From an uncultured Muribaculaceae bacterium (GTDB lineage Bacteria > Pseudomonadota > Alphaproteobacteria > Rs-D84), in NCBI GenBank assembly GCA_964619545.1, contig CAZUED010000003.1:163-64162 (forward strand): 64,000 nt of DNA, given 5' to 3'. A program made the position numbers and the translations under genes. This document shows, one piece after another, positions 2,461-59,737 of this stretch. Within the stretch, counting starts at the first letter, position 1. The number at the start of each line of letters is the position of its first letter. Under the pieces are notes generated by a model. The model had not been told where the DNA came from, did no database searches, and saw only the letters and a list, made by a program, of their open reading frames with translations.

Positions 2461-4704
2461 ATGAATAAAAATTCCAGATTTTGCAAAAAGTTTGGTGCAT
2501 GTTTATCTATGCCTTATGCTGTTTTTTTGATGTTCTGCATGGGTATAGCTGATGCAGCTGAAGTAAGTCGTGCACTTCCCGGAAAACAAGTTGCTATTTC
2601 AACGACATTCCAAAATCAGATACAATCCGAAGATGAAGTACCGGTGATAGAGCCCGGACAAGTTTCTGTACCCATATCGGTTTCACGTACGGCAGCATTG
2701 CCTGCACAAAGAAGTCAAAATGAAATAAGATCACGCACAGCGGCGACAGCTGTTCCACGCGATGCACTGAATGAAGCTGCGCGCCAAGTTGGACGCAGCG
2801 CCAAGGCCGAGGCAGCAAGTATGAATGCAACGGCACCAGTTCGTCGTGCGGGGATTTCTTTACGTCCGACAGCTGCCGAGGTTGGCGGCCGTGCAGCAGT
2901 TGTTACAGCTGGTACAACTACAGCTTCAAGTGTCAGCGCGGCAAGTCGTAGATTAACTTCACGTGCTGCAACTACAGGTCCCGATACAGCTGGGATTGAC
3001 GATACAATAGCTGTGACGGAATCATGCCAAGCGCAATATACCGACTGCATGGATCAGTTCTGCGCTGTCATTGATGCCAACCAAAAAAGATGCAGCTGCA
3101 GTAATCGTCTTTCTTCTTATTCGCGTGTAGAAACATCTGTAAAAGAAGCAAACAATCAGCTGAATGACGTCGCACAACGCATACGCTATGTGGGATTGTC
3201 TGCGGATGAAATTAGTGCGATTATGAGCGCGACCGAGGCTGAGATTGCATTACAAAATACCCGTGATACAACAGAATCACGGAATATGCTGGATGAAATT
3301 GAAAATCTTATTCGTTCGCCGGAAAATGTTGTTGCGCAAAGTTCTTCATCAACGATTGATTTGGACTTGAGTTTTGATGCAGAGGCTGATCCCATGGAGT
3401 TGTTTAATCTTTCCGGATCATCAACAGGGTCATTTTCTAATTTGCGTGGAACGGATTTGCTAAATGCCGCAAAAAAACGTTGCCAATCTGTGCTGACATC
3501 ATGCAAAGCCAAAGGTGCAAACGTCAATCAAATTACAGGTCGGTATGAAATAGAGATAGATAAAGACTGCATAACATATGAAAAAGGTCTGGAAAAGATG
3601 AATCAGACCTTGCGCACAAATGTTCGCAGTGCAACACAAATGTTGCAAAAGGCAAGACTTGCTGTGCTTGAAAATCATAACTCTTACGACGCCAAGGGTT
3701 GTGTTGGTGCTTTGGAACAATGCATGCACGACGAAATGGTTTGCGGAAGCGACTATTCTAAATGCCTTGATCCGACTAAACGCTTTATAGACGAAAGCGG
3801 AAAAGTAGTTTTGGGTCAAAATATTTCCATGATAAGAAACATTATGGCGAATTTTGATAATTCTATAATAGACGAGTCGTTTATAGGTTCAGCATGGGCA
3901 ATGTCGGGAATGTCTGGTTGTGATCAGGCACCAAATAATAATGGCAAATGCATTGTGAAGTATTTGTTGGGAAAAATCGGAATGGGCGAAGATAGCAGCT
4001 CTGGTTTGTGTCGCCCGGTTTTAGACAAGTGTCAAAAACAAACGTATGATGGCCGCGGCAAATATAATCCGAAAAACGCAATAGTCGTGGGCTATATACA
4101 GCGCGCAATGACTAATATTCGTGCTGCCCAGGAAAATATAATTTCAGATTACGCATCGACATGTATGGCGGAAATTGCAACTTGCTATTCCAAGCAGGTT
4201 ACGCAAATCAATGCATGGTCATCAAATGCCAACGTTCAGAATGTGTATTCAGTTCTGAAAGGCGCATGTCGTAATGTTGCACTGACATGCAGCTATGCGG
4301 TTTTCTCGGCCGACCAAACTGTGAATGGTTGCCCAATAACCAGCAATGATATGGCTGGAACCGATGGTGATAGGCAAAGCAAATGTATAGAAAACATTTC
4401 GGATATATTCTATCAATCAATGTTGTGTCCAGATTATTCGACATGGGTCCCGGCACAGACAGGTGCTATCGCAGGCACTATGTATCCTTATTCGCCCGAT
4501 ACACCGATCAGAGTGCATGTTAACGAGCGCTGTGTATGCCAATCAGGATATGGCGTAAATGCGGGTAGTTGTGAACAATGCCCGACCGGATACGCATTCA
4601 ATGCAAATTGCACTTATGCCAGTGCATCCCAAGGTTGTCCGATTATAGGATGCGGTTGCCCAGCGGGTACGACTTGGAATACGACTGCATCTGCGTGCCA
4701 ATAA
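2461..4704 (+). CDS. Large secreted Cys-rich protein, paralog 2, with an EGF/furin-like Cys-rich C-terminus
   Basis: 747-aa ORF with an N-terminal hydrophobic signal and an Arg/Ser/Thr/Ala-rich region. It has the same CxxYxxCMDxxC...RCxC core as paralog 1. The C-terminal end reads CVCQSGYG...CEQCPTGY...CPIIGCGCPAG. Confidence 0.75.
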   Translation: MNKNSRFCKKFGACLSMPYAVFLMFCMGIADAAEVSRALPGKQVAISTTFQNQIQSEDEVPVIEPGQVSVPISVSRTAALPAQRSQNEIRSRTAATAVPRDALNEAARQVGRSAKAEAASMNATAPVRRAGISLRPTAAEVGGRAAVVTAGTTTASSVSAASRRLTSRAATTGPDTAGIDDTIAVTESCQAQYTDCMDQFCAVIDANQKRCSCSNRLSSYSRVETSVKEANNQLNDVAQRIRYVGLSADEISAIMSATEAEIALQNTRDTTESRNMLDEIENLIRSPENVVAQSSSSTIDLDLSFDAEADPMELFNLSGSSTGSFSNLRGTDLLNAAKKRCQSVLTSCKAKGANVNQITGRYEIEIDKDCITYEKGLEKMNQTLRTNVRSATQMLQKARLAVLENHNSYDAKGCVGALEQCMHDEMVCGSDYSKCLDPTKRFIDESGKVVLGQNISMIRNIMANFDNSIIDESFIGSAWAMSGMSGCDQAPNNNGKCIVKYLLGKIGMGEDSSSGLCRPVLDKCQKQTYDGRGKYNPKNAIVVGYIQRAMTNIRAAQENIISDYASTCMAEIATCYSKQVTQINAWSSNANVQNVYSVLKGACRNVALTCSYAVFSADQTVNGCPITSNDMAGTDGDRQSKCIENISDIFYQSMLCPDYSTWVPAQTGAIAGTMYPYSPDTPIRVHVNERCVCQSGYGVNAGSCEQCPTGYAFNANCTYASASQGCPIIGCGCPAGTTWNTTASACQ

Positions 4705-10265: not shown

Positions 10266-10690
10266 TGGTAGATACAAAGGGTGTAGAAGCTGTAATTCCA
10301 CATCGCGGCAATATGAGATTGGTGGATGAAATTCGCGAATTTAATGAAATCAGTGGTGTTGGTATAAAACATGTCAGGGATGATGAATTTTGGTGTGCCG
10401 GACATTTTCCCGGAAATCCGATAATGCCTGGTGTTTTACAGGTCGAGGCCTTGGCGCAAACTGCATGCTTTATTGTGTTCAAGCAAATGGGTGCAACAGG
10501 TAAGGACACTTTGGGCTATTTTACCACTATGGAAAAAATCAGATTTTCGCACATGGTAAAACCTGGCGATACGCTTGAATTGCATGTAGAAATTTTGGCA
10601 AAAAAATTAAACATGTATAAATTTCATGGAATTGCAATGGTTGGCGGGAAAAAAGTTTCCGAGGCTACATTTTCCGCAATCATGAATTAA
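10262..10690 (+). CDS. fabZ: 3-hydroxyacyl-ACP dehydratase
   Basis: Hotdog-fold motifs (HFPGNPIMPGVL). Confidence 0.95.
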   Translation: MMVDTKGVEAVIPHRGNMRLVDEIREFNEISGVGIKHVRDDEFWCAGHFPGNPIMPGVLQVEALAQTACFIVFKQMGATGKDTLGYFTTMEKIRFSHMVKPGDTLELHVEILAKKLNMYKFHGIAMVGGKKVSEATFSAIMN

Positions 10691-10794
10691 AATCGCTGTA
10701 CGTGCCTTTATCGGCAGTTAAATACTTGTATAAAGCATCGGGCGTCCATATAAATGGCGCCCGAATTTTTAATACGTGTTTTGCGAAAGAAACA

Positions 10795-10995
10795 CAGGTT
10801 ATGTTAGAGCATAAGTTATAGGGCATAACGCATAGATATTTTTTACCTTGTGCCTTATGCTCTAAAAACACCCATCCATTTTGTTCCAGGATTTTTAGGT
10901 CGCGGGTTTGCAGCAGTATAAAGTTTATTTTCCCTGAACCGACTTGTATCATAGTGTATCTATGTCTTATGCCTTTAGCCTTATGCTCTAAAACG
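10795..10995. repeat. Three copies of a ~35-40 bp repeat unit (consensus ...gccttatgctctaaaa...), one inverted and two direct
   Basis: Copies at 10799-10840 (reverse), 10845-10872 and 10960-10995. The track ORFs here contain the internal repeats IVLEHKAKG and VFLEHKAQG and are probably non-coding. Confidence 0.6.
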
Positions 10996-11096
10996 ATTGC
11001 GCAGTGTCGAAATTTTCGGCAAAAAATGCGTGGCATTATTTTCCTGGTATTATTTGTAAATCCGATAAGCATGAAAATCTCCGATTTTTATTTAAT

Positions 11097-11205: not shown

Positions 11206-11616
11206 TTAGTTTTCCAGCCATCCTTTGATTTTTGCAGCTTGCGCGATAGTTTGCATTGCATCATTCCACAGGGCAGCTTTGGCATTTTCTGACCATTCAT
11301 GCTGATGTGGAGCGCGCCGCAAGTCTCCAAATTCTTTCAAGACTTCCAGTTGTTTGGGCGTTAGCTTGCCGGCCAGGTAAAGCCGAGTGATAAGAGTTTC
11401 AACATCAATAGCTTCACAAGGATATGGATTTCGTGCCACTGGTCTTCCGATACGCATACGCGCAATGCTGGCAGATGAAAGCGCATCCTTTTGTCGGCAA
11501 GTTAAAAACCAAAACCACATTTGATCGGCGTCTTGAAATTTTCTTTCTGGTGCGTCAAAAGCCGTAGAAGGTATATTTTTTTGTTTTAAGTTGGCGTTCA
11601 TTTTTTCTCTCTCCAT
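11206..11616 (-). CDS. Hypothetical small protein with a possible helix-turn-helix (LTPKQLEVL)
   Basis: ORF with two possible ATGs (11616 and 11601; the second follows GGAG). Lies inside the IR-bracketed block. Confidence 0.5.
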   Translation of the reverse strand: MEREKMNANLKQKNIPSTAFDAPERKFQDADQMWFWFLTCRQKDALSSASIARMRIGRPVARNPYPCEAIDVETLITRLYLAGKLTPKQLEVLKEFGDLRRAPHQHEWSENAKAALWNDAMQTIAQAAKIKGWLEN

Positions 11617-11741: not shown

Positions 11742-11775
11742 AAAAATTCGCCACTTGGGCGAATCGGAGAATTGT
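11742..11775 (-). terminator. Rho-independent terminator after the Cys-rich paralog 3 gene
   Basis: attcgcc-acttg-ggcgaat hairpin with a T-run on the minus strand. Confidence 0.5.
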
Positions 11776-11790: not shown

Positions 11791-13938
11791 TTATCTATCT
11801 TGACCGATTTTGGTAGATGTTCCGGATTTCAGGTTGTCATTGGCTATACGAAGTTGTACTTGGTATGCGTTTATACAATCTGTCATACTGGAATTAGTCA
11901 TAGAATCGCCACATTTTTCAAATTGAGATTCAGATAATTTCAATGTTGTTGACATTCCTTTCAGCAAGTCAGAATCAAATTTAAGCTGCTTTCTGGCATC
12001 TGTTTTATTTGATGCGGAACGTATTACGCTCAAGTTGTTATTCAAGCAAGAAATCATATCTGATGTGCTGTAAACCTCATTACAATCACGAGCACCATTT
12101 AATCTTACATTACCTTTAGAAGATTTGCTTGCACTAGTAGAAGAATCATCAGTAGTATCGCCGCCAGCGGCCTGTAATTTTGATACCAGAATGGATTTCT
12201 CCATCTGAGTCTTTAACCGCTTCATAGTAACGTCCAAAAAGTCATACTGACGTTTCATCTGTTGAGTAATAATTGTCGTTTTCAATGCGATTGTATCCGC
12301 CATCATTTGTTTGTCAGCGGCCGAGGTTGGATTTTTTGTACTTCCAATGTTATAAGCATGGGTGCTGCACAAAGCGATGGCTGAATTGATATAATCATTT
12401 CCGCTGTCTTCTTTGCACCCGTTATCAGCTGTGCCAATGGAAAGAATTGCGTCCAGATTGTTGTTTTTGACACACAGATTGCGATCTGGCAAACGTCTTA
12501 GCTGTGCCAAATTACTTATAACAGCTAACTGATCAGAATTTGTTGCACACCATTTTATTGCGTCGGCTGCAGATTCTTCGCCGCGAATTACACTTGGTGC
12601 GTCCTGGGCAATTATTCTGCGCAAAGTTTCTATATCAATCGTCGATTGCTTTTTGCGATTTTTAAATAACACGGAATTATCAATTGCGTCAGATGCACAT
12701 GCAACGCGAATCCCGCCAGAACTGCCCGCATCCATATCCAGCCAGTTTTGTTGAATGTCCTCTTGATTATTTAACATCTTTAACAAAGTGCAATGGGGCT
12801 GTTGAGATTTTACTCGGCGGTTCCCCTGAGCATCATTTTCGTATGCTATAGGCCAGTATCCGCGGCCGGTTTTTGTATCATAATCGCAAGTTATGCTTGT
12901 CTTATCATCAATTTTTTCAGTTTGATTTTGAGAACATGTCTCGCACATATATTGCCCCCAGACATTGCAAGAGCCATTCAGCATCATGTAAATATCTGTT
13001 ATATCAACGCCCAAAGATTGCGCTAAAACCAACGCATCATACAACTCGTCCAAAACTGCATCATACGGATCAAAGAATTTATTTGCCTTATCCTTGAACG
13101 CTTTGACTCGCCGAGGACCCTGGCAATTATTTCCATTAGAATCACAACGCGCATAATCAAAAACATTTTGCATTGTGTTTTTTAAATCTTTCATCGCAAC
13201 ATCAGAATTTTCAAGCTGGGTCAGTATTTGACCACCAATTTGTTCGCGTGCCAAAACATCTGCCGATACACCCGCATTGACTGCATTAGTAATTGTTTTA
13301 TCGGGTGCTGATGCGCTTGCTGCTTGGGCCGCGGCCTGTGCTTGCTGGGCCGCCAGTTGTTTTTGCTCTTCCAATGCTTGCTGAACAGCCGCGGCGGATT
13401 GAGCAGATTGTTCTTGCATCTGTTGCTGCATCTGCATCATCTGCGCTTGCATTTGTTCTATCTGAGTGTTTGATTGCGCCGCTGCTGCATTTGCAGCCTG
13501 CGTTGTTGCAGCATTTTGCGCCTCGGTTGCTTTTGCAATAGCGGCACTTACCATCTGTGCCGCCAATGTTTGGATTAAATCGTCACCATATTGCTCGCAC
13601 GAAGGATTACTTTTCACGCAACCTTTCACAATCGGAAGCGCCAATTCCATGGTTGTGCAGCCCGCGCACTTTGGCTGGGCGCAACGCAAAATAAGTGAAT
13701 TACAATTTCCAAAATCTGCAACCGGCCTTTGTTGCCCCAGTGGATTAGGGTTTATCGCGGCATTCCACTGATTGTTGTTCAATGCGCCGGCACTGCCGGT
13801 AAATACAGTTCTGTTACCTGAAATTCCGCCAGAATTTGCAAAAGAAGGCCCTGGTCCGCCGATAGGACTGTCGCCATAGGCAGTCCCCAGTGCAAAGCAG
13901 GCGGTACAAACAGATAAAAATCTGATTAAAATCTTCAT
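11791..13938 (-). CDS. Large secreted Cys-rich protein, paralog 3. It has a signal peptide, a Gln/Ala-rich coiled region and many Cys residues
   Basis: Track ORF 11791..13998; start moved to M21 (MKILIRFLSVCTACFALGTAYG). The motif C-x6-C-x4-C-x2-C resembles paralogs 1 and 2. Lies 67 nt downstream of virB10. Confidence 0.7.
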   Translation of the reverse strand: MKILIRFLSVCTACFALGTAYGDSPIGGPGPSFANSGGISGNRTVFTGSAGALNNNQWNAAINPNPLGQQRPVADFGNCNSLILRCAQPKCAGCTTMELALPIVKGCVKSNPSCEQYGDDLIQTLAAQMVSAAIAKATEAQNAATTQAANAAAAQSNTQIEQMQAQMMQMQQQMQEQSAQSAAAVQQALEEQKQLAAQQAQAAAQAASASAPDKTITNAVNAGVSADVLAREQIGGQILTQLENSDVAMKDLKNTMQNVFDYARCDSNGNNCQGPRRVKAFKDKANKFFDPYDAVLDELYDALVLAQSLGVDITDIYMMLNGSCNVWGQYMCETCSQNQTEKIDDKTSITCDYDTKTGRGYWPIAYENDAQGNRRVKSQQPHCTLLKMLNNQEDIQQNWLDMDAGSSGGIRVACASDAIDNSVLFKNRKKQSTIDIETLRRIIAQDAPSVIRGEESAADAIKWCATNSDQLAVISNLAQLRRLPDRNLCVKNNNLDAILSIGTADNGCKEDSGNDYINSAIALCSTHAYNIGSTKNPTSAADKQMMADTIALKTTIITQQMKRQYDFLDVTMKRLKTQMEKSILVSKLQAAGGDTTDDSSTSASKSSKGNVRLNGARDCNEVYSTSDMISCLNNNLSVIRSASNKTDARKQLKFDSDLLKGMSTTLKLSESQFEKCGDSMTNSSMTDCINAYQVQLRIANDNLKSGTSTKIGQDR

Positions 13939-14005
13939 ATTCTCTCTTGAAGCAAGTTTATCATAAAATGCGAGGAAATGCAAGCCTCCCTTTAACAAGT
14001 GGAAG

Positions 14006-16300
14006 CTAAATTATTGGGGGAAAGCAATCACCGCCAGCTGCTGGACAGCAGTTGAATCCTTGGCTACCCATGTCTGTATAAACCTCGCCCGTGCAACAGC
14101 CGTTTAAGTCTGGCGATGTACCATCTTCGCAGGTCAGTGCCGTCGTGGTGGTGGTTGCGGGTGGTGTTTCTTTGGCAAATGGATTTTTTATTGTACCGTC
14201 CGCATTGTATTGCAGGCCCAAAACTTGCTCGTTATATTCTTTTGTTCCCTTAGTTAATTGCTGGCCATTGGTTCCGACAATACCGGTTTGCTGCTGGTTA
14301 TTCCAAATAGCCTGCTGTTGGGCATTATTTATCGCTTGATACTGAATTGCTTTACAATATGCAACAACGGTACGATAGTCATAGCCAGCCTCGGAAATAG
14401 TTTGTGCTGTTACACCCGCACTCAGCTGTCCATTAGTGCCGCAGTATTTCTGTATATCAAATCCGCGAACTTGTCCAACCCATGATGCATCATCATAATT
14501 TGGTATGGCTTCGGACGCTTTATGAGAAACATATTGCGAAGGAGTCAAATTGCAATTTTCAAGCCCATTCACCTTGTCGCAGAAGTTCACAATTAAATCC
14601 TTTGGCGAATAAACCGTTATGCGCGTACCAGCGGCAATAGAAAATGGAGGAACCGTGTTGTCCAGCATATCAACCATTAATTTTTGCGCAACTCTGTTCC
14701 ATGTTGAAATAATTTCATTTTTTGCCAGCTCGGACGAGCGAACTTGACCACTTTGTGTAACCGTATTGTTATCCAGATCAATTTGATTTACGAACTTGTC
14801 TGAAATTGGCGCAATCAAATTAACAGCGGCAGGCACAACTGCCGTTATCATCGGCATTATGAATTGCTCCATATAATCTGTGCTGCCGTGACCTGGAACG
14901 CCAACGCGACCTTGGCTGTCGCCAGCAAAGGGCTCGTCCCCGGCAAAGCTGAATTCAACTCCGTCCGGTCTAACAAAGCGATACCATTTGATTTGCATAC
15001 GACCGATGGCTTTATACGGACCCGGCATTTCACCAGTCAAATAACCCAACATCAATGTTCCGGTCGGAATTATTATAGTGCGTCCGTTATCAGAATAGAC
15101 ATGTCTATCAACTGTTGCCTGAACTGGCAACATGGATTGACGCTCTATCTTTGCATCTGCACGTATTTCATTTACGATTGTCGCAGGAATAGGCTTGTAC
15201 TGGCGCAGAACAAAAGTGCGGTCATAGGGCTCGGTCGATATAAATGCATCGCCCGCAGATGAAGGTACCAGGTTACTTTCTGGTTTATATGCAAATGCTG
15301 GATTTATCTCTGACAAACGTTTTGCACCACCCGCAGCTCTGGGTAATTCTGCCGCTGCTGCATTTACTTGTCTTGCTCGATTTTGTACGCGTGCGTTCGC
15401 CGGATTGGACAATACAGGAACATTCGCGCTTGATGCAATAAATCCGATTCGATCAAAGTCAGAGCCTATTTTTCTGCTGGGATTTTTAAGATCGGTAATA
15501 AATCCGGTATCCAAATTATATTCACCCAGTGGGCTGGTGCAGTCCAAGTCAGAAAAAGGATGAAAAAGATAATGTCCACCTTGGGGACGTATCCATCCGA
15601 TTTGCTTTCCATATGCGTCATAGCCGCCGAATGCAAATTCATAGCAGCGCTCGGTATTTAATGCTGCTGTAGTTACTGGCGCAGGCAAATTTTCTGTTGC
15701 AAATTTTGGCGCAAGGGTTTCGACCGCCTCGGCCACAGGATTAATTTCAGGGGCAGTCAAAACAGGTTCTGGTTCTGGCAATTGCACTGGTTTTTGTGGT
15801 TCTACTTTTTTTGTAGATAAAGCAACAGGAATTTCAGCAGTTTGTGCCATTTTGGCCTCGGCACTGGCGGGGTAATACTCAATAAGTACTTTAATGCCGG
15901 TTGGTTCCAAGTCTGCAGCAGGCGTCCAAGTTAATTCTGCACTGCAAGGAATGCCAAGTGTAATTTCGCCCATATTTGTACAGGTGGTATCTATGCTTAA
16001 TCCATCAATTTTTTGGGATAGTTTTACGCTGGGAATCATTGCGACTGCATTCGAAGAAATTTTAATAGTCTGTGTCTGTTTTTCGCCAACTGGAATGTTT
16101 TGCCATGCGATCTCAGATGGATCCATGGTCAGCTCCAGAACTGGTTTTGATTCGGACTTTGGTTTATCCTTGGAATCGCGACCCATCAGAATAACCAGCA
16201 AAACAACGACTACCAAAAAAGCAGCGAACATCACGATCCACAGCACATGCCGTGGCATGGACTTTTTTACATCGCTGATAGTGGTTGTTATCATCGCCAA
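14006..16300 (-). CDS. virB10: Type IV secretion protein VirB10/TrbI-like with a long C-terminal extension
   Basis: N-terminal TM segment, a Pro-rich region and a TrbI-type domain (...VDRHVYSDNGRTIIIPTGTLMLG...). This is followed by a Q/N-rich stretch, a TTTTT linker and a tail with 6 Cys. Confidence 0.88.
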   Translation of the reverse strand: MAMITTTISDVKKSMPRHVLWIVMFAAFLVVVVLLVILMGRDSKDKPKSESKPVLELTMDPSEIAWQNIPVGEKQTQTIKISSNAVAMIPSVKLSQKIDGLSIDTTCTNMGEITLGIPCSAELTWTPAADLEPTGIKVLIEYYPASAEAKMAQTAEIPVALSTKKVEPQKPVQLPEPEPVLTAPEINPVAEAVETLAPKFATENLPAPVTTAALNTERCYEFAFGGYDAYGKQIGWIRPQGGHYLFHPFSDLDCTSPLGEYNLDTGFITDLKNPSRKIGSDFDRIGFIASSANVPVLSNPANARVQNRARQVNAAAAELPRAAGGAKRLSEINPAFAYKPESNLVPSSAGDAFISTEPYDRTFVLRQYKPIPATIVNEIRADAKIERQSMLPVQATVDRHVYSDNGRTIIIPTGTLMLGYLTGEMPGPYKAIGRMQIKWYRFVRPDGVEFSFAGDEPFAGDSQGRVGVPGHGSTDYMEQFIMPMITAVVPAAVNLIAPISDKFVNQIDLDNNTVTQSGQVRSSELAKNEIISTWNRVAQKLMVDMLDNTVPPFSIAAGTRITVYSPKDLIVNFCDKVNGLENCNLTPSQYVSHKASEAIPNYDDASWVGQVRGFDIQKYCGTNGQLSAGVTAQTISEAGYDYRTVVAYCKAIQYQAINNAQQQAIWNNQQQTGIVGTNGQQLTKGTKEYNEQVLGLQYNADGTIKNPFAKETPPATTTTTALTCEDGTSPDLNGCCTGEVYTDMGSQGFNCCPAAGGDCFPPII

Positions 16301-16321
16301 CGCAGACTCCTGAGCCTTTTA

Positions 16322-17797
16322 TTATTGAACTCTTACTACATTGCAAGCGGTCCCTTGGAACTTTGTCATTTTATCACAAAGCTTTTGTGCGCTTTCAATG
16401 TCCGACATGGGCCCAATACGCAGGCGATAAAGCCGCGCGGTTGCAGCGCCCGTACCCAGATCTCCAACTCCAGACTCGTCAACTGCGAAATAAACCATAT
16501 TACGATAAGGATTCAGCAGTCCTTGTCCATCATCACCACTGAATTTCGCCAGCAGCTTTGTCCAATAATCATTCAGTGCTTTGACAGAAGTATCGGATTT
16601 CAGCTCAACAGCGACACCTGCTTGATTAGAGGTTATAATTGGAATGTCGCTTTGCGGCAGGAACGAGCCCGCAGTATTGCGAACACTTGGCAGCATATTA
16701 ACGCCAGTCGCACCAGTTGATGCGCCATTTGTCGGCATTACCATCGGCGGTTGAAATCCATTAACCTGTTGGTCAGTGATTGGCTGCAACATTGCACCAG
16801 AATCAACCGGCATATTTCCATAACCAACATTTTGCAAGGATTGTGATGATTGCATGCTTTGCATAACGTTAGATTCAGCCAGTGCCATGACGCTGGAAGT
16901 GTCAGCAATCAAGAAGGGTTTTGCGCGACGCTTGATACAAACAATTCGCTGACCACTGCGCAATACCATATCCCCAACTGCTTCTACAATCAACAGGCGT
17001 CCGTTTTCACCATCAGTACGAAAACCGACTGGCGATTCACCACCTTCGACCAAGATAGAAACAACTGGTCTTTGAGTCATTGCGATAACCTTGTCGCCAA
17101 AATCAATATAGGTAAAGATTCTGTCGCGCCATACGCGTTCAGGCGCAATTACAAAGTCATCAGGATTCGGGACAAAAATGTCTAAATCAAAGCGGAACTC
17201 TGACGGATCAATTTTCATTGTTTTTATCCAGCCGTAATCTTCGCCGTCAACGCCCAAGGTAGAAGTTGAATTTTTCTTTGGGAAAATAGAGTTCATACCA
17301 GAAGTTTGACCAGCAGAAGAGCTGGTTGCATTTGGTATGCTAGAACGCCCATCCAGAACAACATCAACCTGGGAATAAGAAATTTCGCTGGAATTAGCAG
17401 GTTCGGAACGCAGATAGAATAAATATTTATTTCCTGATTTGCCAGTAATAATCAAATTTGTGTCGCTGCCCTGATTTGTTGCAACCGGTGTCATATAAAT
17501 TGTTCTGCCACCTTTTTGCGGATCCATTTGGAACAAACCTTCGTTACCAATGACGCCATCTTCGATAATTTCGCCTTCGGGCAAATTTATCATGGTTACC
17601 ATTCCATTACGCAAACGAATCGGAAGAACTGCGCCTGGCGCCCATGTCAGTTGGGCAAAGCCAGGTTTAGAACTGCCTGTGGCCATATTTGCCTCTGGGT
17701 TATCCCACGCATCCTGGACACCATAATCTTCGGCACTTGCCCCGCCAATACAAAAGGCAAAAATCAAAGGGCAAAGAGCAAATAATTTTATATTCAT
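16322..17797 (-). CDS. virB9: Type IV secretion protein VirB9-like with a C-terminal SPOR-like extension
   Basis: Signal peptide, and N- and C-terminal domains similar to VirB9/TrbG. About 190 extra residues end in a putative SPOR fold. Confidence 0.82.
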   Translation of the reverse strand: MNIKLFALCPLIFAFCIGGASAEDYGVQDAWDNPEANMATGSSKPGFAQLTWAPGAVLPIRLRNGMVTMINLPEGEIIEDGVIGNEGLFQMDPQKGGRTIYMTPVATNQGSDTNLIITGKSGNKYLFYLRSEPANSSEISYSQVDVVLDGRSSIPNATSSSAGQTSGMNSIFPKKNSTSTLGVDGEDYGWIKTMKIDPSEFRFDLDIFVPNPDDFVIAPERVWRDRIFTYIDFGDKVIAMTQRPVVSILVEGGESPVGFRTDGENGRLLIVEAVGDMVLRSGQRIVCIKRRAKPFLIADTSSVMALAESNVMQSMQSSQSLQNVGYGNMPVDSGAMLQPITDQQVNGFQPPMVMPTNGASTGATGVNMLPSVRNTAGSFLPQSDIPIITSNQAGVAVELKSDTSVKALNDYWTKLLAKFSGDDGQGLLNPYRNMVYFAVDESGVGDLGTGAATARLYRLRIGPMSDIESAQKLCDKMTKFQGTACNVVRVQ

Positions 17798-17876
17798 TTC
17801 ACATCCTTCCTAATTTTTTTCTCAAGCGAATTCAGCTGTGACATTTGCCACTTGCCGTTTGCTATTTAAGTTTATG

Positions 17877-18530
17877 CTATTGCATAAAATCGAGCGGATC
17901 ACTTCCCCCTGATTCCACCCGGTATTCCGAGACTTGCAGCCCCAGCGGATTTTCCTGTCTGTTGCCCCATTTCAATTCTGGCGTGTAGGTCAATCCTATT
18001 ACAATAGTAAAATCTTTTGGCGGGGTATGTCCAGCGCTTTCTGATGTGCAAAACCATCTGAATTTTACAGCGAATTTATCACTTCCGCGTGGCTCAATTG
18101 CGGGCGATTGAAACTCTACAGGGCACGAAAACTGAACGTTCGGAGAATCCTGCATGAAAGCAGACCATAACTGAGTTGTTGCAAATCTGGCATAAACCTC
18201 TCTAGATGACCAGATATAAACTGGGCCGTCTGGGCTGCGCCACTTGTACCGCATGGTATTTACATTGGGTGTTATTTCGTTGCGCGCGCGAATATATTCC
18301 TTGATGAAGCTTTCCTTGTAATCGATCATAGTTTTGTTATTTACTGGCAGTTGTTGAATTTCGATTATTTGACCCTCGACACGGCGCGCATTCAGCAAGA
18401 AAACCTGGGTCCTATTCAATGGGAACATGTTAGAGACTGCGAAAATCATGGCCAAAGCAGTTGCAATTGCTGCGGCCAGCACGAAAGACATCATGCGCGC
18501 GGTAAAAGCATTGGGTGTGACAACTGCCAT
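17877..18530 (-). CDS. virB8: Type IV secretion protein VirB8-like
   Basis: N-terminal TM segment, a periplasmic domain and the NPLG motif (NPLGLQVSEYRV). Confidence 0.78.
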   Translation of the reverse strand: MAVVTPNAFTARMMSFVLAAAIATALAMIFAVSNMFPLNRTQVFLLNARRVEGQIIEIQQLPVNNKTMIDYKESFIKEYIRARNEITPNVNTMRYKWRSPDGPVYIWSSREVYARFATTQLWSAFMQDSPNVQFSCPVEFQSPAIEPRGSDKFAVKFRWFCTSESAGHTPPKDFTIVIGLTYTPELKWGNRQENPLGLQVSEYRVESGGSDPLDFMQ

Positions 18531-53074: not shown

Positions 53075-53731
53075 TTAATTTTCAACCTTATAAATTGTGT
53101 CAACTGCATGTGGTGTGCCGATATAAATCATGGTGCCGCTAGGGGAAAGAATAAAGTCCAGTTCCCGCAGACGCATGCGTAACATTTCTCGTTTTTGAGA
53201 AGTATTGCTGGTGTTGGGAACTTCCACGTCATCGCAGATAATCATATCGGCGCGCTGACCTGTTATATTTCCATGAATACCTTGGCAGACTACAGAAGGT
53301 TCCCGAATTCCAACTTGGCGCGAGATTGTAATTTTATGCATTCCCCATTCTTTTTTAACGTTTGGCAATAAATCTCGGCATTCTGGATGATTTTCCAGAA
53401 TATGTTTTATATGTGACACCATTCTTGATGCCAGATTGGATTCTGCAGAAAGAATAAGTATACGTGTTTGTGGTCTTATAGAAAGTACCCATGCGGCGAA
53501 AATGCCAACAACTGATGATTTTCCTGAATGTCTAAATGCCAATAAAAGCGCCCGACGGGGCGGATTTTCAAGGCTGTTTACCAGAAATCTCAAAATGTTT
53601 TTATGATGTGTTGGTGTTTCCATTCCCAGTATCTGGTTCCATGCATCTAAAAAATTTTTCGCGGATTCATAAAGTTCCATAATCATCAATACTTTCACTG
53701 GGGCCTGTATCTGCCGGGGTTCCATAATCAT
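53075..53731 (-). CDS. Phage terminase large subunit, N-terminal ATPase-domain fragment
   Basis: Walker A-like RHSGKSS, Walker B IICDDVE and the coupling motif IGTP. The fragment ends right after the ATPase domain. Confidence 0.65.
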   Translation of the reverse strand: MIMEPRQIQAPVKVLMIMELYESAKNFLDAWNQILGMETPTHHKNILRFLVNSLENPPRRALLLAFRHSGKSSVVGIFAAWVLSIRPQTRILILSAESNLASRMVSHIKHILENHPECRDLLPNVKKEWGMHKITISRQVGIREPSVVCQGIHGNITGQRADMIICDDVEVPNTSNTSQKREMLRMRLRELDFILSPSGTMIYIGTPHAVDTIYKVEN

Positions 53732-54215
53732 TTATCATTCGCGGCATGGCAGTACTCAGCACTGATAAAAGATTATTATAAAGCCCCAGTGCAGCGCCTC
53801 CACCAGTTTTATCTTCTATTAATTCTTTAATGACATCCATCTGATGCACGACATTGTCATGAATATTTTGCCACTGGGCAATACTGATTTCAACTGAGTT
53901 TAAATCTCGGAAAGCCTCTAGTATAAAATTAAAATCTGCGTTCAGGTTTTCGGGATCAATTTTTGCAGCTGGCTGATAATCGATAAAGCGGGATAGACTT
54001 ATCTTGCGAAATATATCTATACGAGAATTTTGCACGGGTGGATTTGCAAAAGAAATTATTCCACCAATCATATTCTCATCATATTGCAAATTATATTCAG
54101 TAGAATCCAAAATAACTTCATTGATTGCCACATGAACGTCTAATGGCTGAAAAAAAGGAAAAGCAAAGGCAAAGCAATATGCTTCGCCGTCACCGACATA
54201 AGAAATCTTGTACAT
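53667..54215 (-). CDS. Hypothetical phage-associated protein
   Basis: ORF sitting between the structural genes and the terminase. Confidence 0.4.
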   Translation of the reverse strand: MYKISYVGDGEAYCFAFAFPFFQPLDVHVAINEVILDSTEYNLQYDENMIGGIISFANPPVQNSRIDIFRKISLSRFIDYQPAAKIDPENLNADFNFILEAFRDLNSVEISIAQWQNIHDNVVHQMDVIKELIEDKTGGGAALGLYNNLLSVLSTAMPRMINDYGTPADTGPSESIDDYGTL

Positions 54216-54232
54216 TTTATAACCTTTGTTTG

Positions 54233-54580
54233 TCAGGCAATCAATCCATCCAGTCTGGAAATGAATGATTTCAACAGATTGGATTTTGGTGTTTTTATTT
54301 TATAAAGCTTGTCCAGATTGGATTTCTTTTTTTCATCAAATGGTTCTTCGGTTTCTTCACGCAGTCTTTTCAGAACAGCCTCTTCGGTCATTCCTTTATT
54401 TGTCATTCCTGCGCTGCCGTATTTTGCACGTTGTGCGGCTAATGTTTTTTTTACCAGATTGATTTTTGCTTTTTCATCCGCCGCAATTTTTTCTAAAATT
54501 CTTTTTCGTTCTGACACGTTTTCTTTTTTGTCTTGTTTTTGATTTAAGATGTCTGTGACATCTGATACAAGTTGTCCCAT
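54233..54580 (-). CDS. Hypothetical protein (K/E-rich)
   Basis: ORF. Confidence 0.4.
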   Translation of the reverse strand: MGQLVSDVTDILNQKQDKKENVSERKRILEKIAADEKAKINLVKKTLAAQRAKYGSAGMTNKGMTEEAVLKRLREETEEPFDEKKKSNLDKLYKIKTPKSNLLKSFISRLDGLIA

Positions 54581-54590
54581 TTTTTTCTCC

Positions 54591-56315
54591 TTAGATTAAA
54601 TACCAGCCTTCTACTGATATGCCCAGTATGCTTACAGGTAATGGTTCGCTACCCGATATAGTCCAAAGAGGACAGGTAGTATCGTCAATTGTTCCCAATG
54701 AACCTACAGAAACATCTCCGCAGTATCCAGGCGAGTCTACACCAAGTGCATCATTTGGAAGTTGTGCACGAACTGCATTTATAAATAAAGATTTGGTATT
54801 CAGGCATCGTGCGGAAATTTTATGCACTCGAATTTTTTTCGGAGCTCGTCCACTGGCGAATAAAGGCATCGCAGCAGCCGTATGTGAAAATCCGAATTGA
54901 CCAGAATCAAGAGTTTCTGCTGCTGAAAATTTTTCTATGAATACGCCTGATTCGCGCGCGACTATTACAAATGTTTCACCATTCAGCACAGCGACAGATT
55001 TGAATGATCCCAGTGTTTTGTAGATGCCCCAGGCAGAAATTTCCAATGCCGAGTTTTTATTCAGTACTGCCATGGAACCATCTGTCATCACCACAAACAA
55101 CTGGCGTGTTTTATCATTATATGCCAGATCCACGGGATGCTTCATCAAGTGACCGGAAATCGCGCACAAGTTTGGTGCATTGTAGTTTTCACCTAACTCA
55201 TCCATAATCATTTCTCTGATTTCGTTGCCACCTTTGGAAACAAAAATAGTGCTGCGGTCTATCTTTTGTGGCTGCAGATAAATCGAAGAAATACTTCCTG
55301 CATTGGTATGTTGTCTGATGTCCATGGATGATGGAGTTAATGGTTTTGCGCTGATTGCCCATTCGCCTGCTGTGGTTAAAATTTGTAAATTATCGCTGGA
55401 TACAACCGTGCAAATTTGTTGGCGTGCAGATGAAAGCAGTGTCAGAAAAATGGCTTGGTCATCCAATCCTGTTTCAGCATTAAAGTTTTGATGATCACCA
55501 ACGCATGACATCCAAACCCCACATGGCCACGCGCGCGAACCCCCAAATACCAATCGGTCCTGATGAAAAGTGATGCTGCGTGGCCATCCGCGGCGGACAC
55601 CAAATGCGGCTTCGCGCCAATCAGAAATTGCCGCACTGGGCAGCGAGTAAGTTCCATTAGTGTATGCAACGATAGTGGTAGAATTTACATACTCGTAAAT
55701 GACCCATTGCTTACCCATCAAGTAAAGTCTGCCATTGAGATTTTCAGGTGTCCAAAAAGCGGCACTGGCAGTAAAAGTAGCATAGTTATTCCCATTCGCA
55801 TTACTTGATACAGAAATTTTTATACCAGCTGCATCGTCAAATTTCATAAATGGCATATTTCGTGACATATCATCGTTTGTTGAAAAATCAAATGTGGACA
55901 GATAAAACGCGCCACCTGTTTTTTTCAGAACTCGTGGCTGAAAATCCTGATGCACGAAAATCATGGTATCAAAACGTTGCGCATATTGCATGTTACACAA
56001 TGCATCCGCGCCCCAAGGCGAGATCAAGGCCTGGACCATATTCTGACCATCATAAATTTTCATCTGACCATCAGAAATAGCCAGCATATAATTTTCTGAA
56101 TCGGAAATAGAAAAAGGAATCAAAATTGCACCATTTTTTGTCGCAGCAATCCGAATTGTTCCATTCCGCCGTGAAATAGCCCCCGATGCCAAGACATCCA
56201 TATTTTCCATACGCGACAAGCCGCGGGATGAAACATCCAAATCACCACGCGCAAAAAATTCTGGCGATACTTCCCCCAATGCGAAAGAGTTCTGATTGTG
56301 AATAAATTTTCCCAT
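54591..56315 (-). CDS. Putative phage structural protein, positioned like T7 gp12 (tail tubular protein B)
   Basis: 574-aa beta-rich ORF immediately downstream of the gp11-like gene. Confidence 0.35.
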   Translation of the reverse strand: MGKFIHNQNSFALGEVSPEFFARGDLDVSSRGLSRMENMDVLASGAISRRNGTIRIAATKNGAILIPFSISDSENYMLAISDGQMKIYDGQNMVQALISPWGADALCNMQYAQRFDTMIFVHQDFQPRVLKKTGGAFYLSTFDFSTNDDMSRNMPFMKFDDAAGIKISVSSNANGNNYATFTASAAFWTPENLNGRLYLMGKQWVIYEYVNSTTIVAYTNGTYSLPSAAISDWREAAFGVRRGWPRSITFHQDRLVFGGSRAWPCGVWMSCVGDHQNFNAETGLDDQAIFLTLLSSARQQICTVVSSDNLQILTTAGEWAISAKPLTPSSMDIRQHTNAGSISSIYLQPQKIDRSTIFVSKGGNEIREMIMDELGENYNAPNLCAISGHLMKHPVDLAYNDKTRQLFVVMTDGSMAVLNKNSALEISAWGIYKTLGSFKSVAVLNGETFVIVARESGVFIEKFSAAETLDSGQFGFSHTAAAMPLFASGRAPKKIRVHKISARCLNTKSLFINAVRAQLPNDALGVDSPGYCGDVSVGSLGTIDDTTCPLWTISGSEPLPVSILGISVEGWYLI

Positions 56316-56842
56316 TAGAACCTCGTTGATATAAGTGAAAAGTCAGGTATGTCATTGCTGGGTGACACAGTGCTGTCTATGAATTTTGCCGCGCGCAGCT
56401 CGGATTCAAACAATGCTGCAATGGTGCGTAATAAATTCTGGTCGCCGGTCAATGGCATACAGAATTCCCGTGCAAGTTGCAATGCAGCGACATTTGAAAA
56501 ATATGAAGGATAATTTTCTGGTCCCATTCGCACAACAGCAGTGATTGAAATTTTATCGGCCGGTGCAGAAATTCTGTTCCCGCTAGTTTGATAAAGCAAG
56601 CAATCACAATCCAAAACACGAAGAATTTCTACTGGCAAAAGAAAATCACCATCTGTGGTCTTGCTTAAATTGAATTTTTTCTGGGCAAATTTCCACGGAT
56701 GCGACGCCAGCAAAGAATCAATCGTAGTATCAAATAGGGTCTTTGCGACTTTGGCTGCAGCACTATCGTCGTTAAAAGACTGAATGGGATTTTCACCAAT
56801 TTTCAATAAAGCAATAGAACACAGATCAATTTTAGTAAGCAT
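56315..56842 (-). CDS. Tail tubular protein A-like (T7 gp11-like)
   Basis: N-terminal pattern IALLKIGENPIQSFNDDSAAAKVAKTLFDTTIDSLLASHPWKF resembles the gp11 N-terminus (recalled from memory, not searched). Confidence 0.45.
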   Translation of the reverse strand: MLTKIDLCSIALLKIGENPIQSFNDDSAAAKVAKTLFDTTIDSLLASHPWKFAQKKFNLSKTTDGDFLLPVEILRVLDCDCLLYQTSGNRISAPADKISITAVVRMGPENYPSYFSNVAALQLAREFCMPLTGDQNLLRTIAALFESELRAAKFIDSTVSPSNDIPDFSLISTRF

Positions 56843-56865
56843 GGGGAACTCCTGACTTTTAACTT

Positions 56866-57150
56866 TTATGCCAAAGCACTGGTTGTTACATTCTGGGATG
56901 TGATGTTAATTTTTTTGATTACGGTGTTGTCGGAAGCATTGATAATTACAATGTCGCCAATATTCATCAAAGTGCGGACCGGATTAAAAAAACCAGTAGT
57001 ACTGATGGTCGCAATACTTTCTTGGGCGGCATAGTGCCACAGAGTAAATCCATTTGCATACGCAATAACGGACAAGTTTTTGTTTTGGAAATACATGAAA
57101 AACTCCATTGTTTGAGGGATGAAGGAGGAAGTTTGAGGTAAAAAAATCAA
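56866..57150 (-). CDS. Hypothetical phage protein
   Basis: ORF between the capsid and tail-tube genes. Confidence 0.35.
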   Translation of the reverse strand: MIFLPQTSSFIPQTMEFFMYFQNKNLSVIAYANGFTLWHYAAQESIATISTTGFFNPVRTLMNIGDIVIINASDNTVIKKINITSQNVTTSALA

Positions 57151-57188
57151 TAAAACTAAAACCTAATCCTTCATCCCTCATTCTTTAA

Positions 57189-58004
57189 TTATTCGGCGCA
57201 ATTGATTTTGACGATCCCGTCCTGATCAATCAGCACGCTGCCCTGGGACATGCTGTTGCTGATAAAGTGCGCAGCGCGTTCGCCATTCCAAAAGATGTCA
57301 GATTTGACTTCTTGGCCACATGCATGACCGATAGCGGACGAGTGATACATAAAGCACTTACGCATATTGGTACCGGTTGGCAGGCCGTTATGCATAATCC
57401 AATTGATGCCCAACCACTTACGCAGTTCGAATCCACCAATCAAAGGTGTTTCGTTGCCGACGTATTCAGCCGAAACGAATTCATCCATAGACAAAAGCTC
57501 ATTCCACTGATGAACACCGACGACGCAGAATCTGCGACCATCGTCAGGAACGTCTTTAGAGTTCAATGCTTCGACCGCGGACAAAATAATTTCTTTGGTC
57601 AAAGCGGCAGTTCCATCTCCGACAGCGGTTGTTGCATTGGCCATAGATGTTATAATCAGCTCGTCAGTCTTGCGACCCAATGCATATGCACCTGCGCTTG
57701 CGACAACCCGACGTTCATCAATGTTGATTTTTAATTCATCCAAAGCATCAACCCAATCGCCCGCATAATAGTCCTGCAATACGCATTCAACAGGCTCGTG
57801 GTCCAAGTTCATGACAGGAACTAATCCGTGGCGAGATTTGGTAGTGGCAGTACCACGACCAACTTTTTGGAAAGTTGTACTGCTGCCTATAACGCCGGAT
57901 TTACTGCGTATTGTGTTGCGAAGCTTTGTCCCCATTTGTTGATAAGCAAGATGAACATCGGCCTCGAATTGTTTTACGAATATCTGGTCTATTGATTCAG
58001 ACAT
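57189..58004 (-). CDS. Major capsid protein, T7 gp10-like
   Basis: Several local pattern matches to gp10 as recalled (FVKQFEADV..., RRFCVVG, FMYHSSAIG). Strong RBS AAAGGAGA. Confidence 0.5.
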   Translation of the reverse strand: MSESIDQIFVKQFEADVHLAYQQMGTKLRNTIRSKSGVIGSSTTFQKVGRGTATTKSRHGLVPVMNLDHEPVECVLQDYYAGDWVDALDELKINIDERRVVASAGAYALGRKTDELIITSMANATTAVGDGTAALTKEIILSAVEALNSKDVPDDGRRFCVVGVHQWNELLSMDEFVSAEYVGNETPLIGGFELRKWLGINWIMHNGLPTGTNMRKCFMYHSSAIGHACGQEVKSDIFWNGERAAHFISNSMSQGSVLIDQDGIVKINCAE

Positions 58005-58311
58005 AGTTTCTCCTTTTTGATTGAAAAAAACCGGACATTATTGTCCGGTCATAAATAATTTGTTTTTCAGGTTCCGCGCAAAAGCGCGCCGTAAAAACAA
58101 ATATGCGGGTTCGTCAGAATTGTATGTCTTTTTCTGATGCTATGTTTTGCCTTATTATATACCAATTGTCCTTAAATCCGTTTTAGTGGTAGTTGCGAGA
58201 AAACAGCACATTACAGCACTTCATAGGTTGTAATGGGGCATTTTAGCACTAGAAAAGCGGTAATAAAAAATCCCGCTTTGCGGGATTTTTTATTTCAATA
58301 ATGTAATTACA

Positions 58312-58800
58312 TTATTTCTTTTTAGCAACTGGCTTTTTCGCCGGGGCTTTCTTAGCAACAGGCTTTTTAGCAGCTGGTTTTTTCGCAGCTGGCTTTTTCG
58401 CCGGGGCTTTCTTAGCGACAGGCTTTTTGGCAACCGGCTTTTTAACCGCAACTTTCTTAGCAGCAGGTTTTTTAGCAGCAGGTTTTTTAGCAGCAGGTTT
58501 CTTTGCCATTGGCTTTTTAGCAACAGGTGCTTTTACTGCCAATTTCATAACTTTTTTTGCAGCTGGTTTTTTTGCTGGAGCTTTCTTAGCAACAGGCTTT
58601 TTAGCGGCAACTTTTTTTACAGCTGGTTTTTTTGCAACTGCTTTTTTCACAGCTGGTTTTTTAGCAGCAGGTTTTTTAGCAGCTGGTTTTTTTACAACGG
58701 GCTTTTTAGCAGCTGGTTTTGCAGTTGCTTTCTTTGCCGCTGGTTTCAAGAATGAAAATGCCATTCTCTTCTCCTTCCTTTTTTTGTTTTTATAGAACAA
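58312..58800 (-). CDS. Histone H1-like Lys/Ala-rich protein (AKKP-type tandem repeats)
   Basis: About 25 PAAKK/PVAKK repeats and strong DNA-level tandem periodicity. An alternative start exists at M13 (58764). Confidence 0.7.
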   Translation of the reverse strand: MFYKNKKRKEKRMAFSFLKPAAKKATAKPAAKKPVVKKPAAKKPAAKKPAVKKAVAKKPAVKKVAAKKPVAKKAPAKKPAAKKVMKLAVKAPVAKKPMAKKPAAKKPAAKKPAAKKVAVKKPVAKKPVAKKAPAKKPAAKKPAAKKPVAKKAPAKKPVAKKK

Positions 58801-58876
58801 AAAATTTTTGTTCTTGATTACATTTTATCTGAAACAAAAAAATTAGTAAAGCGAAAAGAAAAAAATTACATAAAAT

Positions 58877-59575: not shown

Positions 59576-59720
59576 GAGTAAAAATTGAATTCATAGTCGT
59601 AAAAACATTTTCATCACCAACAAGATATGCCGTGATTGCGGATAAAATTCCAACGCCGGAAATTATGTAAGTCCGTTGTCCTGCAAAGAATCCGCCACTT
59701 AAAATTTTTGACATTCGCAT
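59499..59720 (-). CDS. Small two-TM protein, a possible holin
   Basis: 73 aa with two hydrophobic segments and a charged C-terminus. Adjacent to the cell-wall hydrolase. Confidence 0.3.
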   Translation of the reverse strand: MRMSKILSGGFFAGQRTYIISGVGILSAITAYLVGDENVFTTMNSIFTLAGIYFLRKSTQRGKNANSRKIPKR

Positions 59721-59737
59721 AAAAAACTCCGTTCAGG

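Follow-up and report, generated by a model that had tools for sequence, protein, structure and literature searches.

The archetypal core of P-type (VirB/Trb-like) type IV secretion systems (T4SSs) is represented by VirB7/9/10 with VirB8 in A. tumefaciens, TraN/O/F of pKM101, TrwH/F/E of R388, and VirB7/9/10 of Xanthomonas, in which VirB8 carries an NPxG motif, VirB9 consists of two domains, and VirB10 combines a membrane helix, a Pro-rich region, a TrbI barrel, and a hydrophobic helix pair. Some accepted T4SSs lack VirB11, VirD4, or both, and the ComB system of H. pylori, which is encoded in two operons with VirB4 as its sole ATPase, is devoid of VirB1, VirB5, VirB11, and VirD4 (PMC7366825). 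In Rickettsia, the genes of the Rickettsiales vir homolog (rvh) system are scattered over several islets, with virB4, virB8, and virB9 duplicated, multiple copies of virB6, and virB7 present (PMC2653234). Here we describe a virB8-virB9-virB10 operon in a 64,000-nucleotide stretch of contig CAZUED010000003.1 (positions 163 to 64,162; hereafter the window) from Rs-D84, a GTDB order of gut Alphaproteobacteria. The features of the archetypal cores listed above are all found in its products. Unlike those cores, the locus has no VirB7 gene that we could find and no adjacent ATPases, its VirB9 carries a SPOR domain, and its VirB10 is roughly double the usual length and extended at the C-terminus. The three genes encode the outer-membrane core of a divergent P-type T4SS together with its periplasm-spanning scaffold.

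An earlier note, made from the sequence of the window alone, had assigned three neighboring open reading frames (ORFs) on the minus strand to VirB8, VirB9, and VirB10, and all three matched the respective Pfam profiles above the curated cut-offs. Lengths are in amino acids (aa).

17877-18530, minus strand: virB8, 217 aa; N-terminal membrane helix and periplasmic VirB8 domain with NPLG
16322-17797, minus strand: virB9, 491 aa; signal peptide, VirB9 N- and C-terminal domains, variable linker, SPOR domain
14006-16300, minus strand: virB10, 764 aa; cytoplasmic tail, membrane helix, extra periplasmic domains, TrbI barrel, C-terminal extension

The hallmarks that the note had named were borne out by the Pfam check. 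VirB8 scored 52.7 bits (E value 6.6e-14; cut-off 23.2), its NPLG motif at residue 194 was invariant in 79 of 79 sequences, and its N-terminal hydrophobic 19-mers started at residues 11-20. VirB9 matched CagX over residues 49-290 (1.6e-21; 77.5 bits, cut-off 34.2; profile positions 5-197 of 198), and VirB10 matched TrbI over residues 365-569 (2.6e-18; 67 bits, cut-off 35). Among solved structures in the PDB, the VirB10 barrel matched CagY (1.2e-7), Xanthomonas VirB10 (1.4e-4), ComB10 (3e-3), and TrwE (0.06); the VirB9 profile reached R388 TrwF marginally (0.002), and the best VirB8 match was likewise marginal (E value 0.05). The NCBIfam matches to VirB9, VirB10, and ComB10 all fell below the equivalog cut-offs, the latter two with E values of 3.6e-16 and 7.9e-13 for window VirB10, and the system is therefore divergent.

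One genome per species was scanned with VirB9, which revealed a close relative in 298 species-level genomes, and the loci of the best 80 of these were compared. The 80 genomes are gut metagenome-assembled genomes (MAGs) sampled from termites, ruminants, horses, mice, and humans, and they are labeled Candidatus Enterousia, Alphaproteobacteria, or 'Rickettsiales bacterium'. The hosts of the locus belong to Rs-D84, the relatives of Ca. Enterousia, which NCBI places in Alphaproteobacteria incertae sedis and not in Rickettsiales. Two of the sequences are labeled chromosome (OZ246409.1, 716,531 bp, and OZ007020.1, 958,618 bp, the latter with 'circ' in its title). Rs-D84 genomes are smaller than about 1 Mb, lack biosynthetic pathways, including nucleotide synthesis, as well as standard transporters, and have a coding density of 89-91% with no accumulation of pseudogenes in those published; an obligately symbiotic or parasitic life has been proposed for these bacteria (PMC12306168). 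Among MAGs with the locus (L001, L002, L006, L025, L064, and L034), several are labeled 'uncultured Muribaculaceae bacterium' and one is labeled 'Bacteroides fragilis'. On an alphaproteobacterial locus these labels are likely taxonomic mislabels or the result of mis-binned contigs.

The gene order virB8-virB9-virB10 was found in 80 of 80 loci, with virB8 detected in all of them by tblastn, and nusG-rplK-rplA-rpoB lay upstream of virB8 in nearly all loci whose contig extends that far. In the window, housekeeping genes of the chromosome flank the cluster, with lpxD-fabZ at one end and tRNA-Trp, secE, nusG, rplKAJL, and rpoBC at the other. Downstream neighbors in other genomes were also housekeeping genes, for example those matching YidC, LspA, and Kef in Pfam. 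The operon is thus chromosomal and vertically inherited. VirB9 was 483-588 aa long in 80 of 80 loci and VirB10 765-905 aa in 75, the other five being shorter where they were ended by contig boundaries; full-length coverage was found in more than 120 protein clusters for VirB9 and likewise for VirB10. Because the long forms recur in this manner, the unusual lengths reported in the earlier note (491 and 764 aa) are real, and start-site or frameshift artefacts are excluded.

Full-length VirB9 homologues in the protein clusters shared 65-93% identity with window VirB9. When the eight closest genomes were left out, the median identity to the window proteins was 67% for VirB9, 47% for VirB10, and 42% for VirB8, in comparison with 80% for RpoB, 82% for L11, 75% for NusG, and 74.5% for L1. 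Over all loci, the C-terminal core domain of VirB9 (residues 186-310) had a mean conservation of 93%, above the 80% of RpoB, and its SPOR region had 75%. Judged by these values, VirB9 is under purifying selection at a housekeeping level and is about as conserved as NusG. It is unusual for a T4SS part to be conserved like the transcription and translation apparatus.

These data bear on whether the locus is the decaying, at present functionless remnant of an integrated conjugative element. Such a remnant would fit with the presence of only three out of some 11 T4SS genes and with a nearest relative that is carried on a plasmid. The ORFs are intact, however, with conserved lengths and the same place in 80 of 80 genomes; VirB9 is as conserved as ribosomal and transcription proteins; and the published genomes are densely coding and free of pseudogene build-up (PMC12306168). 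The G+C content of the virB locus resembles that of its flanks, and the annotated ORFs of the window included no identified relaxase or integrase, which together with the synteny ruled out the locus as an integrated element. We give almost no credence to decay, which is effectively excluded.

VirB9 is divided as follows.

16928-17653, minus strand: VirB9 core, the CagX/TrbG domain matched by Pfam CagX (residues 49-290)
16673-16867, minus strand: low-complexity variable linker of about 65 residues joining the core to the SPOR domain (residues 311-375); 36% conservation, length varies
16325-16672, minus strand: C-terminal SPOR region (residues 376-491)

The SPOR profile (PF05036) scored 20.8 bits on whole VirB9, just below the cut-off of 21, and 24.0 bits (E value 4.9e-5) on the isolated last 120 aa; 43 of 47 VirB9 homologues matched it. 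In the structural model the first 20 residues of the fragment (372-391), just past the linker, had a predicted local distance difference test (pLDDT) value below 50. Profile and model agree that the VirB9 tail is a SPOR domain, with a predicted ribonucleoprotein (RNP)-like beta-alpha-beta-beta-alpha-beta fold, as the earlier note had suspected from the extra residues of this protein. SPOR domains bind peptide-stripped glycan strands, which are enriched at the division site. In FtsN, DamX, DedD, and RlpA the SPOR domain belongs to a division protein or a lytic transglycosylase, whereas here it is fused to the outer-membrane core protein of a secretion system, and a literature search found no paper mentioning VirB9 together with a SPOR domain. 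The SPOR domains of VirB9 would fasten the core to wall glycan that is free of peptides, and they may direct assembly to the septal or polar wall. As a direct peptidoglycan tether of the outer-membrane core, this natural fusion may also make up for the VirB7 lipoprotein and the VirB1 lytic enzyme, neither of which is encoded in the locus.

VirB10 is enlarged on both sides of the barrel; the N-terminal enlargement had been absent from the earlier note. Its parts are listed from the N-terminus.

Residues 1-17, minus strand: short cytoplasmic tail, read from the sequence
16181-16249, minus strand: inner-membrane helix (residues ~18-40); hydrophobic 19-mers start at 14-16
15821-16138, minus strand: putative immunoglobulin (Ig)-like beta-sandwich of the ASH/HYDIN type (residues ~55-160); weakly supported
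Residues 161-217, minus strand: Pro-rich linker, delimited by per-block conservation
15401-15649, minus strand: conserved middle domain with two conserved Cys (residues 218-300), with poorly conserved linkers on either side
14594-15208, minus strand: TrbI barrel matched by Pfam TrbI (residues 365-569), with a hydrophobic helix pair at ~480-500
14285-14587, minus strand: post-barrel domain with four conserved Cys (residues ~572-672), modeled as largely helical with pLDDT 82-88
14138-14284, minus strand: flexible linker rich in Gln/Asn and Thr (residues 673-721); low conservation and low pLDDT
14009-14137, minus strand: six-Cys C-terminal module (residues 722-764), C-x11-CC-x15-CC-x6-C, ending CFPPI

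Identity of the barrel across the order was 0.76-0.87 in most 20-residue blocks, and lower at 381-400 and 441-460. Hydrophobic 19-mers in the barrel start at 480-481, and we infer that the hydrophobic pair is the outer-membrane antenna. VirB10 carries four additions to the archetypal protein. The first is the weakly supported Ig-like segment, for which an ASH match in Pfam was found in 5 of 48 VirB10 homologues (best 6.5e-5) but not in window VirB10 itself, and the VirB10 of a related element (L171) gave a faint Ig match of the HYDIN_VesB_CFA65 kind. The second is the middle domain, whose identity across the order was 0.59-0.64 over residues 221-280 and 0.46 over 281-300, and for which neither the window protein nor its homologues gave a Pfam family match. 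The third and fourth are the post-barrel helical domain, which is disulfide-rich, and the six-Cys module. The Q/N-rich stretch, TTTTT linker, and six-Cys tail are in the sequence as the earlier note quoted them, and the extension is conserved. To our knowledge, a VirB10 with a C-terminal extension has not been described. The Cag system of H. pylori offers a parallel in that its VirB9 and VirB10 homologues, CagX and CagY, are also enlarged by lineage-specific domains. In contrast to the Rs-D84 locus, CagX has no SPOR domain, the extra length of CagY precedes its barrel (1629-1816 of 1927 residues) while that of Rs-D84 VirB10 also follows it, and Cag comes with many accessory genes and all three ATPases.

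The six-Cys module comprises 43 residues with identities of 0.67-0.84 across the order; its invariant residues are the six Cys and one each of Pro, Gly, and Glu. It was modeled as a beta-hairpin (pLDDT 84-90), and no relative was found in Pfam or the PDB. A search of the last 200 residues of VirB10 against 1.84 billion representative proteins (exhaustive and profile-free, E value at most 0.001) yielded 208 proteins, which were VirB10s plus three other kinds. The first kind are small secreted proteins (215-270 aa) in which the module is repeated in tandem two or three times. The second are bitopic membrane proteins, some 700-750 aa long, composed of a cytoplasmic N-terminal domain, a coiled coil, one membrane helix, a long acidic spacer, and the module. 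The third is a secreted protease with just a faint Pfam Trypsin match. Since all carriers bear a signal peptide or a membrane helix that puts the module outside the cytoplasm, the module would be a disulfide-bonded docking domain of general use in the periplasm or envelope. It behaves like a C-terminal tag that otherwise unrelated envelope proteins of the lineage have in common, and it may represent a new C-terminal envelope-docking family. When metagenomes were scanned with the module, nearly all matches were virB10 loci.

The other module genes lie in Enterousia-type chromosomal contexts, beside gcrA, ftsQ/ftsA, or a LolCDE-like transporter, and a DsbA gene adjoins the protease gene; no T4SS genes were found in the contexts of three other module proteins. 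Individual examples are a 739-aa bitopic membrane protein ending in the module next to gcrA (L082:10001-12220), a secreted protein of 250 aa that carries the module twice, encoded beside the LolCDE-like transporter (L086:10001-10753), and the secreted protease with the faint Trypsin match, ending in the module, next to DsbA (L088:10001-11311). On the Enterousia-type contig of the first example, a prepilin-peptidase-like gene (Peptidase_A24) is followed by genes for four secreted proteins of 546, 581, 105, and 896 aa (L082:1740-9326). Three of the four are Cys-rich, no Pfam family was recorded for them, and there is no ATPase among them.

Among 72,556 plasmids searched by tblastn, the best VirB9 match was to plasmid p1 of Sphingosinicella sp. 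BN140058 (NZ_CP035502.1), at 41.6% over residues 27-291; blastp gave 41.5% over the core (E value 4e-60). The next plasmid matches were from Erythrobacter aureus (39%) and Microvirga (32%). The plasmid match was far better than that to any solved or named system. The p1 T4SS has been annotated, and we know of no experimental study of it. It has the same virB8-virB9-virB10 order, but it is complete, with virB2-like, virB3-like, virB4, virB11, and virD4 genes and a MobA/MobL relaxase, and it is plasmid-borne, whereas the Rs-D84 operon is fixed beside the rpoB operon. In p1, virB10 is followed by virB11-virD4; the Rs-D84 operon ends after virB10 or after a clade-specific gene. The p1 VirB9 is also enlarged (430 aa), and its C-terminus aligns with the last 35 residues of the SPOR region, where the Pfam SPOR profile does not reach 0.01. 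Because the p1 protein is likewise SPOR-like at its end, the VirB9-SPOR fusion probably predates Rs-D84 and stems from a little-known conjugative subfamily. The p1 VirB10 (548 aa) has a similar segment after the membrane helix and lacks both the post-barrel helical domain and the Cys module, and the C-terminal extension appears from this comparison to be an invention of the lineage. The Rs-D84 machine would have originated as a domesticated conjugative T4SS of the subfamily now found on Sphingomonadales plasmids.

The earlier note had called the locus 'Rickettsiales-style', and this label did not hold. Membership in the rvh system is suggested by the order virB8-9-10, by the reduced alphaproteobacterial genome, and by the submission of some MAGs as 'Rickettsiales bacterium', and the two have in common a chromosomal, vertically inherited T4SS. 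The rvh operon continues from virB10 into virB11-virD4, and we know of no enlarged rvh VirB9 or VirB10. In Rs-D84, on the other hand, virB11-virD4 do not follow virB10, virB8 and virB9 are single at the locus with no second copy of either in it or in the other lineage sequence sampled, and no virB7 was seen. The host order, the lack of any VirB8 match in the PDB better than an E value of 0.05, and the Sphingomonadales plasmid system as nearest relative also speak against membership, which is very improbable and effectively excluded.

We further investigated the remaining T4SS parts. The earlier note had found no virB11 or virD4 in the 64 kb of the window, and ORF annotation together with phmmer searches with two reference systems agreed. 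The references were the full VirB1-B11/D4 sets of S. meliloti pRmeGR4a and Sphingosinicella p1, plus parts of the systems of L171, a mobile element of 68% G+C with the same gene order and a VirB11 (a divergent hit), and of L172, which is described below. The targets were the six-frame ORFs of the window and of 168 lineage loci (80 genome, 80 metagenome, and 8 surrounding other genes with the Cys module), about 2.9 million residues that are highly redundant and estimated to cover at most one third of the gene space of one genome. Only VirB8, VirB9, and VirB10 were matched. The window ORFs of at least 300 aa were identified housekeeping or phage genes or had no Pfam match at an E value of 0.001 or lower, with no VirB4, VirB11, or VirD4 among them. 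Next to virB10, virB11 and virD4 were absent from 80 of 80 genomes, and unrelated genes stood there instead. Because split T4SS loci are known from Rickettsia rvh and H. pylori ComB, the lack of adjacent ATPases is not by itself anomalous.

We put at roughly 65% the probability that the machine is a complete, split T4SS, in which genes at other sites of the genome supply VirB4 and perhaps further parts, as in rvh and ComB. That VirB8 and the membrane helix of VirB10 have been retained suggests a partner complex in the inner membrane. Such a machine would serve a partner-dependent lifestyle through effector export or through the exchange or uptake of macromolecules. Several results weigh against a complete system. 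VirB4, VirB11, VirD4, VirB6, VirB3, VirB2, VirB5, and VirB1 were not found in the window or the lineage loci sampled. A protein-database search with Sphingosinicella VirB4 gave 43 proteins, none of them on the 0.7-0.9 Mb contigs typical of the lineage, which is weak evidence as the search was word-limited and largely blind below about 30% identity. As to VirB7, the small ORFs upstream of virB8 were not lipoprotein-like by translation and the 79- and 21-base gaps around virB9 are too short for a gene, although small lipoproteins are easily missed and VirB7 could be encoded elsewhere. Finally, a T4SS goes unmentioned in a genomic paper on the order (PMC12306168), and a literature search found nothing on a T4SS in Rs-D84 or Enterousia.

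The same results would fit a co-opted scaffold from which every ATPase has been lost, in which VirB8-9-10 alone are kept from an ancestral conjugation system as a wall-anchored, envelope-spanning ring that serves as a passive conduit, a junction, or an attachment to a partner cell. The lineage sequence sampled yielded no ATPase and no further T4SS gene, the VirB4 search from the nearest relative gave no lineage-like group, and the operon stops after virB10 in 80 genomes, where that of the nearest relative goes on to virB11-virD4. Housekeeping-level conservation of VirB9 is unusual for a T4SS part, the added anchoring domains would suit a static structure, and the genomes are reported to be without ordinary transporters (PMC12306168). 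Set against this, the sampling reached at most about one third of the gene space, the database search could not pick up distant VirB4s, T4SS loci are normally split in reduced genomes (PMC2653234), and VirB8 and the VirB10 membrane helix have been kept, which suggests an inner-membrane partner complex. VirB4, moreover, is part of every T4SS described so far. We regard such a scaffold as an unlikely if credible alternative to the split T4SS. If complete genomes were to lack VirB4, it would be the first T4SS-derived structure to work without its universal ATPase.

A more elaborate form of this scaffold takes in the Cys module. An ATPase-less VirB8-9-10 ring, bolted to the wall through SPOR, would have been maintained by selection of housekeeping strength as the core organelle for living off a partner cell, and the module would gather other proteins around it, namely the protease, the bitopic membrane protein, and the small secreted proteins, the module being a new envelope docking domain. 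We consider this picture distinctly doubtful.

Improbable as well, and a functional sub-case of the split T4SS, is DNA uptake of the ComB type, in which the operon would be the counterpart of comB8-comB10, a comB2-4-like operon would lie elsewhere, and imported DNA would be a source of nucleotides. H. pylori ComB is itself split in two operons, and the parts it lacks (VirB1, VirB5, VirB11, and VirD4; PMC7366825) are the same set that was not found here. VirB10 matched ComB10 in both NCBIfam and the PDB, several homologues have been named 'ComB9 competence protein' by the Joint Genome Institute (JGI), and a lineage without nucleotide synthesis (PMC12306168) would have a use for imported DNA. 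The ComB10 score, however, was 48.3 bits, far under the equivalog cut-off of 300 and lower than the VirB10 score. In H. pylori, an epsilonproteobacterium, ComB6 and ComB7 precede ComB8, whereas no comB6 or comB7 was found upstream of virB8, where tRNA-Trp and secE lie; ComEC and ComB4 were not found in the lineage sequence sampled. H. pylori ComB also has no SPOR domain and no C-terminal VirB10 extension, and the closest relative of the Rs-D84 locus is a conjugative plasmid system.

The other divergent hit of the VirB4 search also lies outside the lineage. On ENA contig k87_1968470 (29% G+C; L172:8497-11235), a small ORF of VirB3 size is followed by virB4, whose product is 36% identical to Sphingosinicella VirB4 and belongs to the same T4SS subfamily. 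The pair sits among the housekeeping genes tig, dnaN, ruvC, lpxC, and mucR, and the trigger factor of this genome is only 42% identical to that of Enterousia. The contig comes from a different AT-rich alphaproteobacterial lineage with a reduced genome and is not evidence of VirB4 in Rs-D84. It looks like a second chromosomal fixation of the plasmid-type system in split islets.

Rs-D84 and Ca. Enterousia occur widely in the guts of humans, rodents, ruminants, birds, and termites and are thought to be partner-dependent, and no interaction machinery has been described for them so far (PMC12306168). A T4SS core conserved like RpoB or NusG over 298 species-level genomes is the best candidate for such machinery, and the operon offers a concrete target for imaging, antibodies, and metatranscriptomics.

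The remaining features of the locus lie downstream of virB10.

11791-13998, minus strand: gene for a Cys-rich (24 Cys), Q/A-rich secreted protein, 735 aa; likely start is the ATG at 13938
11745-11765, minus strand: terminator-like hairpin and T-run 3' of the 735-aa gene, found by consensus match only
11206-11616, minus strand: gene for a conserved 115-136 aa cytoplasmic protein with a WFWF motif; after virB10 in 65 of 80 genomes
10680-11072, minus strand: gene for a conserved 111-130 aa protein with invariant Cys18, His23, and Cys93; next in 64 of 80 genomes

The virB8, virB9, virB10, and 735-aa genes are closely packed, with intergenic gaps of 79, 21, and 7 bases, and the hairpin likely marks the end of a virB8-9-10-Cys-rich transcript. 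The earlier note had reported a Cys-rich secreted protein after virB10, which is true in the window but confined to 6 of the 80 loci, those of the closest genomes. By this distribution the gene is a clade-specific insertion after virB10. The protein had no match in Pfam, NCBIfam, or PHROG. Straight after virB10 in 64-65 of 80 genomes come the two small genes, unlike in the window, where the 735-aa gene lies between. The window copies of their products are 136 and 130 aa and have no signal peptide. No significant match was found for either in Pfam, NCBIfam, PHROG, or the PDB, nor were there homologues in the related plasmid and element loci. The invariant Cys18, His23, and Cys93 of the 130-aa protein might point to a small thiol enzyme; this His/Cys pattern also raised a suspicion, not advanced here as a claim, that the protein may be a permuted papain-like amidase.

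Two further Cys-rich secreted proteins of 662 and 747 aa are encoded at 451-2439 and 2461-4704 on the plus strand of the window. They are paralogues (E value 3e-12 to each other) with a region rich in Ser, Thr, Ala, and Arg at the N-terminus, many Cys, and no family match; homology of the 735-aa protein to them was not detectable. A homologue of this pair is found at L065:15055-17310, and in L041, L054, and L065 a homologue directly adjoins the virB operon.

Elsewhere in the window, at 53075-60190 on the minus strand, lies a compact structural cluster of a T7-like podovirus, in a lineage with genomes below 1 Mb. It encodes a truncated large-terminase fragment (218 aa), tail tubular B- and A-like proteins, the major capsid protein, a lysine/alanine-rich protein resembling HC2/histone H1, a T7-type scaffold protein, and an endolysin-like protein. 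With no portal or replication genes seen at 53075-60190, the cluster may be what is left of a decayed prophage, or it may encode a particle that has been domesticated.

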